Source: Gemmatimonadales bacterium
GTDB lineage: Bacteria; Gemmatimonadota; Gemmatimonadetes; Gemmatimonadales; GWC2-71-9
NCBI GenBank assembly: GCA_041613315.1
Contig: JBFJHJ010000013.1
Coordinates: 1-64,000, forward strand
Length of the DNA stretch: 64,000 bases
Direction: 5' to 3'
How positions within the stretch are numbered: the first letter of the stretch is position 1; every line of letters starts with the position of its first letter. Positions 51,001-63,000 of this stretch are shown here, in pieces. Made by a program: the position numbers.

Positions 51001-54000
51001 ATGGGACGTATGACGCCGGATTTCCGCACCTATCATGACGTGACAGGGGACGATCGCTCCGGCCTGCTCGAGCAAGTGGGGCGCCAGCGGGAGCGCGTAC
51101 GCGCCCGCCTCGCCGACGTGAGCCGCGTGGTGGCCGTCATGAGCGGTAAGGGCGGCGTTGGCAAGAGTCACGTCACCGCTGGCCTCGCCTACGCCGTGGC
51201 GACACGGGGGGAGGGCGCCGTCGGCGTTCTGGATGCGGACCTCCAGGCCCCGACGGCGGCCCGCCTGCTTGATGCCCGCGGTCCGGTACGCGTGGGAGAC
51301 GACGGCGCCGAGCCGGTGATGGGTGCGGGTGGCGTGCGGGTGTTCTCGATGGACCTCCTGCTGGCGGAGGGACAGCCGTTGCGCTGGCGCGAGCCGGAGT
51401 CGGAGCGATTCGTGTGGCGTGGCACGCTCGAGACGGGCGCGCTCCGTGAGTTTCTGAGCGACGTCCGGTGGGGTGCCCTGGAAGTGCTGCTCATCGATCT
51501 GCCGCCCGGAGCCGCGCACCTCGCCGACCTCAAGTCGCTGGTGCCGGCCCTGACCGGCGCCGTCGCCGTCACGATCCCGAGTGAGGAATCCCGGCGGGCG
51601 GTGGAGCGCGCCATTCGCGCGGCCGGGGACGCGGGCATCCGGCTCCTGGGCGTGGTGGAGAACCTGAGCGGGTACGCCTGTGCCGGGTGCGACTCGACCC
51701 AGCCGCTGTTCCCAGGTGACGCCGGTGCGTCGCTCGCGCGCGCTTTCGGAGCGCCGTTGCTTGGCCGGATCCCCTTTACTCCCGCGCCGCCGCCGGCAGA
51801 CGAAAGCGGTCGGGTGTGGCCGCCGCCGCCCGCGCGTTCCGCCGCCGTGGCGGTTCCTCCCGTTGTGCCGTCCTCGCTGGTGGACGCGTTTCTCGAGGCC
51901 CTGTCATGAAATTCCTTTGCGTCGACTGCGACGAGCGGATGCACTTCGAGGAGCGCGACGTTCCGGGCGACGGGACGTTCGCCGCGGCGTTCACCTGTCC
52001 CCGGTGCGGGCGGCGCATCGCGCTCCTCGCCAACCCCATGGAGACGCAGCTCGTCGAATCGCTCGGCGTGCAGATCGGCGGCCGGCGGCTCGACGAGCAG
52101 CCCCTCGAGCTCGTCCGGCAGCGGGTGGTGGGCCGCGAAGACGCTTTCGAGGATGCCGAACGGCCGCCCCGCGGCCGGCCCGCATGGAGCCCCGAGGCAC
52201 GCGAGCGCCTCGGCCGCGTGCCGAATTTCGTGCGGGGCATGGTGCAGAAGATCTACGCCGAATACGCCGCTGAGCGCGGGATCGCCGAGATCACACCTGG
52301 CGTGATGGATCAGGCGCGTCAGGAGCTGGGACTGGAGGGGATGTAAGTGCCGGACGTTGAGCAGCGGGCCGTCGGCGGCCTGAGCGTGCGGATCGACCGC
52401 ACGCTCTGCGTGGGCTTCGGGGACTGCATCACGGAAGCGCCGGAGGCCTTCGCGCTGGACGGCGAGGGGATCGCCGTGTTCCTCGCTCCCGAGGCTGTCG
52501 ATCGCGAGCGGTTGCTCCGCGCGTGCGACGCGTGTCCCGTGGACGCGCTCACGGTGGTGGACGACGGAGGCCGGCAACTCGTCCCTTGACACACCCGCCA
52601 GGGGGTCCCATACTCGCCCCGAGCGTAGGGGAAAAAGGCGCCGCTGACGGATTCTCGGTGGGGAAGCAGCCGGCAACCGGCGTGGCACCCGCCGTCGTCG
52701 TGATACAGAGATCGCCAGATCTGTTGCCTTCCGAACACGACCATCCGGGCCGGAGGCCGTGCTGTGTATAGGGAAATCTTCGTTCCCGTCGATAACTCCC
52801 AGCATTCCAATTGGGCCGTCGACCGCGCGATCGAGATCGCGGCCACCACCGGGGGTTACATCACCGGGAATCACGTGTATGCCGCCCGTCTGCACGACAT
52901 ACGGTTCCGCCAGTTGGAGACCGGGCTCCCCGCCCGATTCCAGACGCCCGAGGAGATCAAGCGCCAGCGCAAGGTGCACGACAAGCTGATCGAGAAAGGC
53001 CTCCAGTTGATTTCGGACTCGTTCCTCGACCAGGTCGAGCTGCGCGCGGCGCGGGCGGGCGCGCCGCTGCGCCGGCAGCTGCTCGAAGGCATCAACTATG
53101 AGGAGATCGTCCGTGAGGTGAACCGGGGCGAGGGCACTCTGCCGAGCCTCATCGGCTTCGATCCGAACATCGCGGCGAGCTATGACGGCGGCGCCACGGT
53201 GCGGAGCGACGTGCGGTTGGGGGCCGATGGGCGCATCGTCGGCGAGGACGAAGATCAGGCGGACAAGGTCGCCGGTACGTCGGGGCGGCGCTACGACCTG
53301 ATCGTCATCGGCGCACACGGTATCGGCCGTCAGCCCTACTCCCAGCTGGGCGGCGTCGTCGGTCGGGTGGCCCGCGGCGTCGAGAAGGACATGCTCCTGG
53401 TGCGCGACGACCGCCCGCTGGCGGGCGGCACCCTTATGGTGTGCGTGGACGGGTCCTCATACAGCTACAAGGCGATGCGCGAGGCACTGGAGCTCGCCCG
53501 CCGCTTCGGCTCGTCGCTGTACGTGTGCAGCGCCTTCGACGTGGAGTACCACCACGCGGTGTTCCACAACATCAAGGACGTCCTGTCGGTCAAGGCCTCG
53601 AAGGTGTTCAAGTTCGAGGAGCAGGAAGAGCTGCACAACAACATCATCGACAAGGGTCTGCTCAAGCTCTCCCAGGCAAACCTCAAGCGGGCCGAAGTGA
53701 TGGCGCAGGAGTTCCCCGACGTCCCGCTCACGACGCAAATCCTCATCGGCAAACCGTTCCAGGTGATCCTCCAGTGGGTCGAGGAGGTCCGTCCATCGCT
53801 TCTCGTGATCGCACGGCACGGCGCGCACCGCATCGAAGGGACCGAAATGGGGTCGCAGGCCGAGAATCTGATCCGCCTTGCGCCCTGCAACATGCTGGTC
53901 GTCGGCACGCAGGCCGTCCGTCCTGAAGAGATTCCGTGGATCGAGGAGGACGGCGAGGCCGGACTTCCCTGGGCGCCCGAGGCGGAGGTCCGCATTCTCC

Positions 54001-60000: not shown

Positions 60001-63000
60001 AACGGTGGCGGCACCGTGGAGCAGATTTACCGGCGCATCCGCACGGGCTTGGACGGCACGCCGATGCCGTCGTACTCCGACGCGCTTGCCGCGGGGCTGG
60101 TCACGGAGGAGCAGCTGTGGCGCGTCGCCCAGTATGTGCGGAGCTTGGGTCCCGAGGAATCTCCACCGCGCGTGCGCGACGTGTTCCGGGCGGTGCGGCT
60201 CGAGGGCGAGCTGCCGACGGGGCCGGACGACGGTGCGTGGGCGGGGGTGGAAGGGTTCTACGTGCCGCTCGTCGGTCAAATCATCCGGAAGCCGCGGTGG
60301 TTCGCGCCCCGGGTGGACGCCGTCTGGGTCCAGGCCGTGCATGACGGACGGCGGCTGGCGCTGCGGCTCGCGTGGGACGACCCCTCGAAGAGCCCGGACC
60401 CGCTGTGGCAGGAGTCGACGGACCGGATGGCGGCCGCGGTGACCGATGTGGACGGCCCCGTGCCGACGGGACAGAGCGGCGATCGGTTCCATGTGCAGTT
60501 CCCGCTGCGGCTCACCGACGGGATGGAGCGGCCCTACTTCCTGGGTGGCGACGCGCGGCGGCCCGTGTACGATTGGCGCTGGTCGAGCGCACCCGATCGC
60601 CTGGAGGAGGGGACGGCGACGGGCCTCGACCGGTTCAATGCCGCCCCGGGCGGGCCGCAGGTGACGCACGCGGCCGTCTACGATCAGGGGCAATGGCGCC
60701 TGCAGCTCACGCGGGTGCTGGTGCCGGCGGACTCGGCAGCTGCACTCACGTTCGTCGAAGGGCGGGCGATCCCGGTGGCGTTTTTCGCCGCGGACGGCAG
60801 TGACGGCGAGGTGGGCTTGCGCGGGTCGGTGAGCGCCTGGTACGCCGTCTATCTCGACGTGCCGACGCCCGTGTCGGCGTTCGTGACGCCGCTCGTGGCC
60901 GTGTTGCTTACGGCAGGCTTCGGTATCATGGTATTATGGAGAGCACAGCGGCGCGGCCGTGCGGCCGCGCGTCCTCACGCGGAGGGATCATGAGACGAGT
61001 CGTAGTGGCATCGGTCTGCATCGCATTCGGCGCGTTCGCTTGCGGTGGTGGAGAGAGTGGTGGCGGTGGGGGCGCGGGTACCGGCGGTGCAGCAGGTGGG
61101 CCGAGCGGCCCGATGGGCCAGGCCAGCGTCGCGGGGGTCGTGAACTTCCAGGGTACGGCGCCCGCCAATCCGACCATCGATATGGCCAAGGAACCGACGT
61201 GCCGCGACAAGTACTCGAGCGCGCCGAGGGATCCGCAGGTGCTCGTCACCGATGGCAAGCTGGCGAACGTTTTCGTCTACGTGAAGAGCGGACTGCCGGC
61301 AGGAGCGAAGTATGCGGCGCCGGCGACCCCGGTGGAGCTGGACCAGGAGGGTTGCCTCTATCGTCCGCGGGTCTTCGGCGTAATGGTGAGCCAGACGGTC
61401 GCGATCAAGAACAGCGACGCGCTGATGCACAACATCAAAGCCGTGCCTCACGAGAACCGCGGGTTCAACATCAGCCAGCCCACGGCGGGGATGACGACGA
61501 CGCGGACGTTCAACACGCGCGAGATCATGGTCCCCTTCGAGTGCAACGTGCACGGCTGGATGCGCGCGTACGCGGGCGTCCTGGATCATCCGTTCTTCGC
61601 GACCTCGGCGCAGAACGGCACGTTCACGATCCCCCGGATGCCGGCGGGTACATACGAGCTGGAGGCGTGGCACGAGAAGTTCGGCACCCGGAGCGCGACG
61701 GTGACGGTGCCCGATACCGGAACGGTGCGCGTCGAGTTCCGGTTCAGCGCGTCGACGTCCTGACGGGAGACGGTGCATGAACTGGCTTCTGCCGGGCGGC
61801 GTCTCGACGTTCGCCGGCGACATCGACCGCCTCTACTACGTGATCCTCGGCATCACGGGCGCGGCGTTCGTGATCGTCGAGGTCGCGCTGATCTGGTTCT
61901 TGATCAAGTACCGCGCCCGGCCGGGCCGGAAAGCGTATTACACGCACGGTAGCGTCAAGGCCGAGGTGATCTGGACGACGGTGCCGGCGGTGGTGGTGGT
62001 GATGATCGGCATTCTGAGCGGCGGAGTGTGGAACCAGATCCGGGGCCGCGACAGCGTGCCGCCGGGGGCGTTACCGCTGGCCGTGCACGCGAAGCAGTTC
62101 GAGTGGCTCGTCACCTATCCTGGTCCGGACGGCCAGCTCGGGACCGACGACGACTTCGAGCGGCGCAACGACCTGCGGCTCCCGGTGGACACGCCGATGG
62201 TGATCGCTCTGACCTCGGAGGACGTGATCCATTCGTTCTTCATCCCGGAGTTCCGAGTGAAGCAGGACGTCGTGCCCGGCATGACGATCCGTGCCTGGTT
62301 CGAGGCCACCGCGACGGGTGAGTACTCGCTGGCCTGTGCCGAGCTCTGCGGGAACGGCCATACGACGATGGGCGGCACGGTGACCGTGCTGTCGCTGGAC
62401 GAGTACACCCAGTGGCTCGCGGACCCGAGCCGAACCGTGGCTTCGCGGTAGAGGAGCGCGCACATGGCGACGATGGCAGCGACGATCGATCACGCCCACG
62501 CCCACGTGGACGATCGGTCGTTCCTCCGCAAGTACATCTTTTCGACCGACCACAAGATCATCGGGATTCAGTTCCTCATGTTGAGCTTGCTGTTCCTGCT
62601 GATCGGCGGCCTGCTCGCGATGATGATGCGGTGGGAGCTGGGCTTCCCGACGCAGCCGATGCCCGGCGGCACCCTGTTGCCGGAGACGATGGCGCCGGGC
62701 GGGATTCTCCTGCCGGAGTTCTACAACTCCCTCGTCACCATGCACGGCACGTTCATGGTGTTCTTCGCGATCATGCCGCTCTTGGTGGGCGTCTTCGCGA
62801 ACTACTTGATCCCGCTCAAGCTCGGCGCGCCGGACATGGCGTTCCCCCGGTTGAACATGGCGTCGTTCTGGATCGCCGTGCCGGCCGGGGTCCTCATGCT
62901 CGCGGGCTTCTTCGTCGAGGGCGGCGCCGCCGGTGCCGGGTGGACGTCATACGCGCCGCTCAGCGCCAACGCCGAGTACTCCGGCGTGAGCTTGGGGCAA

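Follow-up and report, generated by a model that had tools for sequence, protein, structure and literature searches.

CydA-like membrane proteins without CydB have been described as the OR-N family. In the available part of the original description, the OR-N2 protein of Nitrospira (NIDE0901-like, a 'bd-like oxidase') stands alone in its operon (10.1101/2021.01.16.426971; Murali, Gennis, Hemp), while the accessible text of another study assumes, for the Nitrospirales, a pair of OR-N2 and an OR-N1 subunit (PMC12342949). Two further systems are relevant for comparison: DPOR, whose BchB/ChlB subunit ends in a PCP_red domain, and the radical SAM/SPASM enzymes of the group AhbD (TIGR04545), NirJ2 (TIGR04055), NirJ and AhbC. 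As far as the text at hand goes, AhbD-type enzymes are known in coproporphyrin-pathway organisms without the other Ahb enzymes (PMC13564367). Our analysis of the window, i.e., the whole stretch of 64,000 nucleotides from a Gemmatimonadales bacterium, makes it rather likely that the five genes for cytoplasmic proteins at 51010-56095 act as a dedicated helper system of an adjoining bd-like respiratory complex. This complex would consist of a CydA-like protein, three cytochromes c (one bearing the haem-b domain EB_dh), and a lipoprotein (Table 1).

The block of ten genes on the + strand that the initial annotation had placed at 51010..61763 was recovered as described, including its fn3 protein and its three c-type cytochromes (two, one, and two CxxCH motifs), the third of which is fused to EB_dh (DMSO_red_II_gam, TIGR03477, 71.9 bits). 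The genes are tightly packed: the stop of the ATPase gene overlaps the start of the zinc-ribbon/PCP_red gene by 4 nt, and the radical SAM gene shares 4 nt with the upstream Usp-PCP_red gene and 11 nt with the CydA-like gene.

Table 1. Features of the helper and bd-like block and of the adjoining oxidase genes in the window.
Feature	Position	Strand	Evidence
Mrp/NBP35-type P-loop ATPase (Fe-S cluster carrier family), CxxC motif	51010..51909	+	Pfam ParA/NUBPL 177.8 bits
Small protein, N-terminal four-Cys zinc ribbon and C-terminal PCP_red	51906..52346	+	Pfam PCP_red 52.8 bits
Single-cluster ferredoxin	52347..52589	+	Pfam Fer4_15 41.7 bits, Fer4_13 37.3 bits
Tandem Usp protein with two PCP_red	52764..54764	+	Pfam Usp 109.1 bits, PCP_red 67.5 bits in two stretches
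Radical SAM/SPASM enzyme (AhbD/NirJ group), C-terminal PCP_red	54761..56095	+	Pfam Radical_SAM, SPASM, PCP_red (58.1 bits)
Lone CydA-like membrane protein (bd superfamily, OR-N-like)	56085..57776	+	Pfam Cyt_bd_oxida_I 65.9 bits, cut-off 26.2
Membrane-anchored dihaem cytochrome c	57730..58572	+	Pfam Cytochrom_C; two CxxCH, one hydrophobic segment
Membrane-anchored monohaem cytochrome c	58569..59381	+	Pfam Cytochrome_CBB3; one CxxCH, three hydrophobic segments
Dihaem cytochrome c fused to EB_dh haem-b domain, C-terminal anchor	59320..60993	+	Cytochrome_CBB3 81 bits, EB_dh 33.9 bits, two CxxCH
Probable lipoprotein, CarboxypepD_reg/fn3_3-like C-terminal domain	60936..61763	+	Pfam CarboxypepD_reg 33.4 bits, fn3_3 30.5 bits
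CoxB and CoxA of haem-copper oxidase; CoxA extends past window	61777..64000	+	Pfam COX2, COX1 509 bits

The CydA-like protein is the sole CydA match and the sole carrier of Cyt_bd_oxida_I in the genome, and matches no NCBIfam family, all as noted initially. CydB, previously called absent, gave no match genome-wide at E<=1, which is better worded as 'not found', since the assembly comprises 52 contigs and is 82.9% complete. All ten best PDB fold matches of the CydA-like protein are CydA, and 13 long helices are predicted. Its H38, E125, and H206 align to H19, E107, and H186 of E. coli, while H148, H358, and H507 are extra histidines invariant in the CydA-like family. As far as the available description of the OR-N family goes, the protein resembles its members in the lack of a haem c motif (no CxxCH occurs in its sequence), in the lack of CydB, in its position alone in the operon, and in a CydA homology limited to the first helices and an RQxW motif, next to many extra helices (10.1101/2021.01.16.426971). 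Furthermore, its profile finds strong relatives in Nitrospira genomes. We call it OR-N-like with reference to these described features. In contrast to the OR-N2/OR-N1 pair suggested for the Nitrospirales (PMC12342949, available part), the window's genome yields a single CydA-like gene.

The NCBIfam scores given in the initial annotation were reproduced. For the radical SAM enzyme, they are 284.3 bits for NirJ2 and 275.2 bits for AhbD (equivalog cut-offs 500), followed by 257.2 bits for TIGR04053, a family of the same superfamily and likewise below its cut-off; its top family scores all belong to haem enzymes. In common with the AhbD/NirJ2/NirJ/AhbC group, which gives the highest scores, it has the CX3CX2C motif in its radical SAM core and conserved Cys in its SPASM domain, and this motif plus eight further Cys are invariant among 18 aligned family members. 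However, besides its sub-threshold scores, it differs from AhbD and NirJ2 by a C-terminal PCP_red domain, present in one to four copies in all best-scoring representatives, and by its inheritance with the CydA-like gene instead of sirohaem-pathway genes. Phylogenetically, AhbD, TIGR04053, and a paralogue on contig C16 are separated from NirJ2 and the PCP_red clade (SH-aLRT 100), and the latter clade, which holds the window's enzyme (support 91), falls on the NirJ2 side, apart from AhbD. The next tier of relatives, a NirJ2-type sister group in the same sequence space, frequently carries fused sirohaem decarboxylase domains and in one case a fused ferrochelatase. These relationships support tetrapyrrole enzymes as the nearest relatives of the radical SAM enzyme.

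The C16 paralogue is the second AhbD-like gene that had been noted before (C16:20575-21606, minus strand). It is 29% identical to the window's enzyme, passes the TIGR04053 cut-off (419 vs 395 bits), lies on the opposite side of the main tree split, and abuts a HemY-type gene (hemY). The possibility raised earlier, that the window's enzyme is the ordinary AhbD and thus the ordinary haem synthase of the organism, is ruled out by this separate gene and by the enzyme's placement in a clade of its own. UroD and, at the end of contig C42, a ChdC fragment are encoded in the genome as well. In two alphaproteobacterial loci a HemY-type gene directly follows the radical SAM gene (274 and 237 bits, cut-off 97.85). 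Neither genome has another HemY-type gene, and HemJ is also present in both.

In the zinc-ribbon protein, C5, C8, C31, and C34 show little or no variation (17 homologues, several phyla), and its profile aligns with the final ~55 residues of BchB/ChlB (2xdq_B, E=5e-11; 2ynm_D; 3aek_B), i.e., their C-terminal PCP_red, as well as the stand-alone PCP_red proteins 2kru and 2l09. Unlike DPOR, the window's set has no nitrogenase-like BchN/BchB body. Its PCP_red domains are instead fused to the radical SAM enzyme (one), Usp domains (two), and the zinc ribbon (one), and these four copies, as first reported, are the only ones in the genome. A model of a homologue places the PCP_red domain on a disordered linker, so that its position there is uninformative. 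The N-terminal 219 aa of the Usp-PCP_red protein are Usp as well. The CxxC motif of the ATPase reads CAGC, and its MrpORP score is 169.6 bits (cut-off 450).

The preferred reading draws on co-inheritance, for which we counted genomes in phylum samples, related genomes not being independent observations. Among 401 Gemmatimonadota, 115 encode a close CydA-like gene and 115 a close radical SAM-PCP_red gene, with 114 encoding both and 285 neither; the two genomes with only one partner are contig-edge cases. In 113, the radical SAM gene lies directly upstream of the CydA-like gene on the same strand (match-to-match gap <=377 nt). In Acidobacteriota (n = 151), a CydA-like gene and a full-length radical SAM-PCP_red gene are found in the same 8 genomes and neither partner occurs alone, while another 21 have PCP_red-less AhbD/NirJ2-type genes only. 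Eleven of 151 Planctomycetota carry a CydA-like gene, nine of them together with radical SAM-PCP_red, which never occurs alone; the other two encode 7 and 4 PCP_red domains. PCP_red domains were likewise found in all 47 Nitrospirota genomes with a CydA-like gene (n = 151). One genome of this sample (G427) has four such domains and no CydA-like match, and 26 that lack a CydA-like gene carry a single PCP_red, borne by a different type of protein; thus the domain alone is not specific.

Gene order is a different matter. Among 80 related loci, the CydA-like gene lies within 10 kb of the radical SAM gene in only 21, so that the system extends beyond the operon of the window. Of the 'conserved set' proposed initially, the co-inheritance across phyla stands, but a conserved gene order outside a few phyla does not. 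Loci of Nitrospira, Nitrospina, and Brocadia have the radical SAM gene amidst unrelated genes. Homologues of the Usp-PCP_red protein, the ATPase, and the small zinc-ribbon/PCP_red protein were found in 46, 24, and 18 of the 80 loci, and the ferredoxin in only 7, all labelled Gemmatimonadota or Longimicrobiales. However, ten of ten genomes from other lineages whose radical SAM locus lacks a CydA-like gene encode a strong one elsewhere (620-970 bits). Since both partners are gained and lost jointly in samples of three phyla and co-occur in all ten unlinked genomes, a functional tie between the CydA-like complex and the radical SAM enzyme with its PCP_red partners is supported.

As the helper genes are inherited with the bd-like protein in several phyla, the set probably prepares or delivers its haem. 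From homology and gene content, one might envision that the radical SAM enzyme receives [4Fe-4S] clusters from the Mrp ATPase and electrons from the ferredoxin. The enzyme would cleave SAM and attack a propionate side chain of a coprohaem-type iron tetrapyrrole, as AhbD and NirJ do, and would thus yield either haem b, formed locally, or a variant of haem b; local synthesis or hand-over of plain haem b agrees with the data just as well as the modified haem proposed initially. In BchB, the terminal PCP_red domain is located at the protochlorophyllide pocket, and the four PCP_red domains of the set may similarly hold or pass on the tetrapyrrole, which would reach the apoprotein from the cytoplasmic side. 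Homologies, gene packing, and cross-phylum co-inheritance are the directly supported part of this scheme. We found no publication in the literature on a link between the helper set and the bd-like protein.

Other scenarios must be weighed. Peptides or proteins are the substrates of many SPASM enzymes, and the enzyme could be a maturase that introduces a cross-link or residue modification into the CydA-like protein or a partner, or helps to build a non-haem metal centre, with PCP_red as docking modules. The extra invariant histidines, the Fe-S carrier and ferredoxin, weaker matches to peptide maturases (mycofactocin 147 bits, PqqE 105 bits), and the modelled flexible linker, common for docking domains, would suit this idea. 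Yet models of haem enzymes give roughly double these scores, sirohaem decarboxylase domains or ferrochelatase are fused to relatives, HemY-type genes are coupled to the radical SAM gene in two loci, and the sole solved PCP_red relatives belong to a tetrapyrrole enzyme, which renders protein maturation unlikely. We regard it as rather unlikely that the enzyme is an oxygen-independent coprohaem decarboxylase, isofunctional with AhbD, which at low oxygen makes the haem b of the entire cell and is simply co-expressed with a low-oxygen respiratory island. A general haem synthase would be expected also without a CydA-like gene, whereas none of the 143 Acidobacteriota and none of the 140 Planctomycetota lacking that gene carries radical SAM-PCP_red; PCP_red-less AhbD-type genes do occur there. 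Moreover, the genome already has its TIGR04053/AhbD-type gene beside hemY, and both alphaproteobacterial carriers have HemJ and hence the usual protoporphyrin route. This speaks against a role that the described AhbD-type enzymes of coproporphyrin-pathway organisms (PMC13564367, available part), the UroD and HemY-type genes, the ChdC fragment, the Usp fusions, and the sirohaem decarboxylase fusions of the sister group would otherwise suggest.

The set also borders haem-copper oxidase genes, so its client need not be the CydA-like subunit; the cytochrome partners of that subunit are further candidates. Two such operons flank the block, the downstream one after a gap of 13 nt; a similar COX1 occurs in 16 of the 80 loci, 13 with and three without a CydA-like gene in the stretch examined; and the set follows CtaB-COX3-COX3 in one locus of Rokubacteria and CtaG in one of Anaerolineales. 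However, a CydA-like gene lies ~14 kb upstream on the contig of the Rokubacteria locus, eight loci have a CydA-like gene but no similar COX1 in the stretch examined, and in Nitrospira a small PCP_red gene abuts a CydA-like paralogue. Haem-copper oxidases are widespread in the sampled phyla, whereas the helper set is missing from most of the genomes sampled. That it serves the neighbouring haem-copper oxidase or the respiratory island as a whole is thus quite improbable. A purely regulatory link, in which a Usp stress or hypoxia module travels with the oxidase genes and does not act on them, could draw on the tandem Usp domains fused to PCP_red and on a promoter-like site (52586-52614, inside the 174-nt gap 5' of the Usp-PCP_red gene) that divides the block into two sub-blocks. 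Still, co-occurrence persists with the genes on different contigs or 24-32 kb apart, and a radical SAM enzyme that has three clusters and a dedicated Fe-S carrier is hard to picture as a pure regulator, making this scenario highly improbable.

For the bd-like complex itself, a dihaem cytochrome c of the kind encoded at 57730..58572 accompanies the CydA-like gene in related loci, and homologues of the monohaem cytochrome c, the EB_dh cytochrome, and the lipoprotein were found in 21, 19, and 15 of the 80 loci, respectively. The middle part of the lipoprotein matched no family. Haem-copper oxidase genes do follow the block, yet the label 'caa3 oxidase operon' held only in part: CoxB (61777-62451) has no CxxCH, and of the downstream genes, which continue on the contig after CoxB and CoxA with COX3 and a caa3-type subunit IV, only the latter matches a caa3 model. 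The second haem-copper oxidase operon, directly upstream at 46064-49857, encodes a CoxB with a cytochrome c domain.

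Ten tightly packed genes, all on the forward strand, occupy positions 51010-61763. Start and stop codons overlap by 4 nt between the genes of the Mrp ATPase and the small PCP_red protein, by 4 nt between those of the Usp-PCP_red protein and the radical SAM enzyme, and by 11 nt between those of the radical SAM enzyme and the CydA-like protein. The one sizeable gap measures 174 nt, is located 5' of the Usp gene and contains a promoter-like site, and a scan of the block returned no terminators above chance (8 against 5.1 +/- 2.1 in shuffled sequences), every match being intragenic. 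The Pfam domains listed in the initial annotation were all found, and its NCBIfam scores were reproduced for the radical SAM enzyme (NirJ2, TIGR04055, 284.3 bits; AhbD haem b synthase, TIGR04545, 275.2 bits), the Mrp ATPase (MrpORP, NF041136, 169.6 bits) and the EB_dh cytochrome (DMSO_red_II_gam, 71.9 bits). Since the curated cut-off for MrpORP is 450 bits, the ATPase, judged by its profile matches, belongs to the broader ParA/NUBPL family of Pfam alone and is not an MrpORP protein. The three cytochromes contain 2, 1 and 2 CxxCH motifs. Haem-copper oxidase operons stand on both sides, and block and operons together make up a single respiratory island at about 46 to 65 kb. The downstream operon, previously called a caa3 oxidase, indeed has the matching subunit IV, while its CoxB does not carry the CxxCH motif. 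Two small upstream membrane proteins were left out of the system because their homologues occur only in two to three close relatives.

Features of the respiratory island on contig C13 (JBFJHJ010000013.1)
Feature	Position	Strand	Content
Upstream haem-copper oxidase operon	46064-49857		CoxB with fused cytochrome c domain, COX1, COX3, COX4_pro
Small membrane protein	49944-50540	-	
Small membrane protein	50591-51013	+	
Mrp ATPase	from 51010, first gene of the block	+	Pfam ParA/NUBPL type
Small zinc-ribbon-PCP_red protein	51906-52346	+	Pfam PCP_red
Single-cluster ferredoxin	after the small PCP_red gene	+	Pfam
Tandem Usp protein with two PCP_red domains	before the radical SAM gene	+	Pfam
Radical SAM enzyme (rSAM-PCP_red)	54761-56095	+	Pfam Radical_SAM, SPASM and PCP_red
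CydA-like protein	56085-57776	+	sole Cyt_bd_oxida_I match in the block (Pfam)
Three c-type cytochromes	after the CydA-like gene	+	Pfam; one also matches EB_dh
Lipoprotein-like gene	60936-61763	+	Pfam CarboxypepD_reg/fn3_3-like end
Downstream haem-copper oxidase operon	61777-64000, on to 65243		CoxB without CxxCH, COX1, COX3, caa3-type subunit IV

The lipoprotein-like product shows an H...C-x2-H-x2-M pattern (MHNIK ... CNVHGWM) that resembles a type-1 copper site. An assignment as cupredoxin was nevertheless rejected, as the pattern was recognized by eye and that part of the protein has no Pfam match even at E<=10.

The CydA-like protein matches the family of cytochrome bd subunit I (PF01654) with 65.9 bits (cut-off 26.2). 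Its structure model of moderate quality (pLDDT 73) has 13 long helices, and each of the ten best PDB fold matches of this model is a CydA chain (E 2e-8 to 3e-6, TM 0.38-0.57). Alignments to solved CydA chains are confined to the initial helices plus a short RQxW motif and reach neither Met393 nor the Q-loop. Within this range H38 and E125 correspond to H21 and E108 of 5doq_A, and H206 to the conserved histidine of 9r2g_A, with an offset of one residue in the 5doq alignment. The haem ligands, which the initial annotation had left unchecked, are therefore in place: H38 and H206 hold the positions of E. coli His19 and His186 and E125 that of the channel residue Glu107, and in ten homologues each of the three residues shows little or no variation. 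In contrast, the position of Glu99 is taken by Y118 and that of Glu445 apparently by G501, the alignment around the RQxW motif being weak. Three further histidines (H148, H358, H507) are invariant in ten CydA-like homologues from several phyla, and the family shares an invariant R503/W506/H507 (RQHWH) motif; no alignment to a solved bd oxidase covers any of these residues. The canonical partner CydB was, as stated before, not found: PF02322 gave no match at E<=1 in the assembly (2.63 Mb, 52 contigs, 82.9% complete).

According to the preprint by Murali, Gennis and Hemp, OR-N enzymes have a subunit I without a haem c motif, no quinol site, more than nine helices and no CydB, and OR-N2 members are often without a second CydA-like gene. 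The absence of CxxCH motifs, the 13 long helices, the single CydA match of the genome and the CydB that was not found agree with this account. By these descriptive features the CydA-like protein is a candidate OR-N member, and it also fits the NIDE0901-like OR-N2 of a study on Nitrospirales (PMC12342949).

The gene directly upstream encodes the radical SAM enzyme, in which Radical_SAM (96.1 bits) and SPASM (35.7 bits) precede the PCP_red domain. Its CX3CX2C motif is formed by C35, C39 and C42, and these three plus eight further cysteines are invariant across 18 family members. The radical SAM motif and the SPASM auxiliary-cluster cysteines are shared with AhbD; however, the enzyme is located outside the AhbD clade and below the AhbD equivalog cut-off of 500 bits, and the curated NirJ2 cut-off of 500 is likewise not reached. 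In a quick maximum-likelihood tree of radical SAM cores (49 rows), a split with SH-aLRT support of 100 separates AhbD-type and TIGR04053-type rows and a paralogue on contig C16 of the same genome from NirJ2-type rows and the PCP_red enzymes. The latter form a clade (support 91) that includes our enzyme and stands beside, not inside, four NirJ2-type rows. The C16 paralogue, at 29% identity the one clear paralogue revealed by tblastn of the genome, corresponds to the second AhbD-like gene mentioned in the initial annotation; it scores 419 bits with TIGR04053 (cut-off 395) and adjoins a HemY-type oxidase gene. Together with the tree split this rules out that the enzyme under study is the ordinary AhbD of the organism.

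Among the 150 best 50%-identity representatives, 96 full-length proteins were scanned against Pfam. The top-scoring ones combine Radical_SAM and SPASM with one to four copies of PCP_red. Lower-tier relatives without PCP_red frequently carry fused sirohaem decarboxylase domains and in one case a fused ferrochelatase, and NCBIfam labels 30 of them as AhbD-, NirJ2- or TIGR04053-like. By annotation, the nearest relatives are thus predicted tetrapyrrole enzymes.

A search with an 18-sequence alignment, one genome per species, yielded 80 related loci labelled Nitrospinota, Planctomycetota, Acidobacteriota, Poribacteria, Chloroflexota, Nitrospirota, Methylomirabilota, Bacteroidota, several proteobacterial classes and Gemmatimonadota; in seven archaeal or Chitinophagales loci the PCP_red part is absent. 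Homologues of the Usp-PCP_red protein occur in 46 of the 80, of the Mrp ATPase in 24 and of the small zinc-ribbon-PCP_red protein in 18, and a CydA-like gene was found in only 21 of the stretches analysed, iterated profile included. Ten loci lacking a nearby CydA-like gene were annotated by Pfam. Unrelated genes surround the radical SAM gene in Nitrospira, Nitrospina and Brocadia, whereas it follows CtaB-COX3-COX3 in a Rokubacteria locus and CtaG in an Anaerolineales locus. Given the 21 of 80 and these varied neighbourhoods, gene order alone does not suffice for the proposed set with CydA.

This part of the initial annotation does stand at the level of genomes, and gene order is no longer the only evidence. 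Each of the ten genomes behind the unlinked loci has a CydA-like gene outside the locus, with a strong match of 620-970 bits; in several it apparently shares the contig with the radical SAM gene, at a distance of roughly 14 to 32 kb. Among 401 Gemmatimonadota genomes, 115 have the CydA-like gene, 115 rSAM-PCP_red and 114 both (among them the unpublished G182), and 285 have neither; both singletons are matches truncated at the end of a contig, and in 113 genomes the radical SAM gene is immediately upstream of the CydA-like gene. In the 151 Acidobacteriota genomes, the eight with a CydA-like gene (including the unpublished G609) are identical to the eight with a full-length rSAM-PCP_red, although the partners are on separate contigs in two and 24-25 kb apart in another two; 21 other genomes have PCP_red-less AhbD/NirJ2-type genes only. 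Planctomycetota (151 genomes) gave 11 with the CydA-like gene and nine with rSAM-PCP_red, all nine having both, and rSAM-PCP_red without the CydA-like gene in none. The remaining two CydA-like genomes carry seven and four PCP_red domains; in one of them a three-domain PCP_red gene precedes the CydA-like gene by 1.7 kb, and another domain lies where a contig begins. For Nitrospirota (151 genomes), where PCP_red alone was searched, all 47 genomes with a CydA-like gene contain PCP_red, which occurs without the CydA-like gene in 28 further genomes, in 26 of these as a single domain in another kind of protein. Of the 28, G411 has CydA-like fragments at contig ends and G427 has no CydA-like match. 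Relatives do not count as independent genomes, and the numbers are to be read as a pattern rather than a probability. Nevertheless, it is co-inheritance, unlike gene order, that carries the link between rSAM-PCP_red and the CydA-like gene.

We consider that the five cytoplasmic genes from the Mrp ATPase to rSAM-PCP_red probably form a dedicated helper system for the bd-like complex of CydA-like protein, cytochromes and lipoprotein. The enzyme would perform AhbD/NirJ-type side-chain chemistry on an iron tetrapyrrole, and the PCP_red domains would act as tetrapyrrole holders or hand-over modules. All four PCP_red domains (PF08369) of the genome are inside this block (62.2, 55.2, 41.3 and 39.1 bits; cut-off 32.5). 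Beyond these, matches of the profile are limited to the ~55 C-terminal residues of BchB/ChlB and to the stand-alone structures 2kru and 2l09, both of unknown function. This C-terminal segment of BchB/ChlB is reportedly located at the protochlorophyllide pocket, as seen in structures from 2010, and the literature consulted comments on the role of the BchB C-terminus only by remarking that C-terminal tags disturb activity. In the model of a homologue (P0134, 44% identical), PCP_red follows a linker with a pLDDT under 50, so that the model does not tell where the domain lies with respect to the active site. A complex prediction for the CydA-like and zinc-ribbon-PCP_red proteins gave 0.00 against a mark of 0.32, without controls, and is evidence neither way.

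UroD is present in the genome, as is a fragment of ChdC that breaks off where its contig ends, and no ferrochelatase was found in the 52 contigs (82.9% complete); with the HemY-type gene beside the C16 paralogue, the haem route appears to be the coproporphyrin one, with candidates of its own for the last step apart from rSAM-PCP_red. In two alphaproteobacterial loci a HemY-type gene (274 and 237 bits against a cut-off of 97.85) overlaps the end of the rSAM-PCP_red gene. Neither genome has another gene of this type, both also possess a normal HemJ, and among the control genomes the HemY model matches only Bacillus, Thermus, Deinococcus and Corynebacterium, all coproporphyrin-pathway organisms. 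This suggests, from two genomes, that the module can carry its own entry to a coproporphyrin branch, which would favour a coprohaem-like substrate and permit a product different from haem b. We offer, as a doubtful proposal, the joint reading that rSAM-PCP_red yields a coprohaem-derived or otherwise side-chain-modified haem instead of ordinary haem b, that this is the special cofactor of OR-N bd-like enzymes, that PCP_red is a general tetrapyrrole hand-over domain, and that the alphaproteobacterial module with its HemY-type oxidase opens a private coproporphyrin branch.

Other roles of the enzyme have to be weighed against a dedicated haem helper. It might be a general anaerobic haem b synthase: a 2026 review (PMC13564367) describes AhbD-type enzymes as oxygen-independent coprohaem decarboxylases in coproporphyrin-route organisms. 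With another AhbD-type gene in the genome, and no rSAM-PCP_red in the sampled Acidobacteriota and Planctomycetota genomes that lack the CydA-like gene, we regard this as improbable. Much the same holds for a maturase acting on a protein: many SPASM enzymes modify peptides or proteins, but this one stands among predicted tetrapyrrole enzymes. The flanking oxidase operons and the CtaB, COX3 and CtaG neighbours could point to a helper of haem-copper oxidases; beside the co-inheritance with the CydA-like gene, we judge this quite improbable. A purely regulatory link would also let the two genes travel together, yet for a gene with the conserved cysteines of a radical SAM enzyme it seems very improbable indeed.

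A dedicated helper system would matter, as OR-N 'bd-like oxidases' are presumed to serve as terminal oxidases in nitrite oxidisers and in numerous uncultured bacteria from soil and marine habitats. To our knowledge, neither their cofactors nor even their substrate are known. A helper system gained and lost together with them would offer concrete handles: a radical SAM enzyme, small PCP_red proteins and a deletable gene. It would furthermore give PCP_red a role beyond the synthesis of chlorophyll and extend the AhbD/NirJ enzyme family by one branch. We know of no explanation for how haem d arises in bd oxidases, and a haem enzyme tied to this superfamily is of interest for that reason. If the modified-haem reading were true, the bd superfamily would gain its first system dedicated to the synthesis and delivery of one of its haems. 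The oxygen affinity of the OR-N enzymes is still given as unknown in PMC12342949. A literature search, whose scope excluded the preprint supplement with its possible operon drawings, found no paper that joins these genes.

Several loci and genomes show peculiarities of their own. In one alphaproteobacterial locus (L059, 1430-8228), the helper genes are preceded by genes for an arsenite-oxidase-like molybdoenzyme (Molybdopterin and Rieske_3) and for a large HEAT-repeat protein, a CarboxypepD_reg protein and an FGE-sulfatase-like protein; in another (L033, 6136-8109), only the HEAT-repeat protein was seen before them. The Poribacteria locus L016 (4913-9853) additionally encodes a second Usp protein, one HEAT-repeat and one methyltransferase-like protein and, just before the radical SAM gene, a membrane protein whose match to CopD is borderline (32.1 bits) and to the HemJ family weak (23.5 bits). 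A full module with CydA-like gene and COX1 was found in a locus labelled Bifidobacteriaceae (L032), an unlikely label for such genes that may reflect a binning or labelling error. In five Gemmatimonadota genomes (G060, G381, G127, G086, G290) a single rSAM-PCP_red gene is accompanied by two CydA-like genes, the second being a longer paralogue with 50-53% identity and an open frame of 667-712 aa. One in-frame TAA lies inside the CydA-like match of six Nitrospirota genomes (G421, G430, G448, G439, G468, G534), which could be due to a split gene, a sequencing artefact or read-through. In 26 other genomes of this phylum (G455, G535, G463 etc.), the lone PCP_red domain lies, for most matches listed, in a frame of ~340-450 aa.
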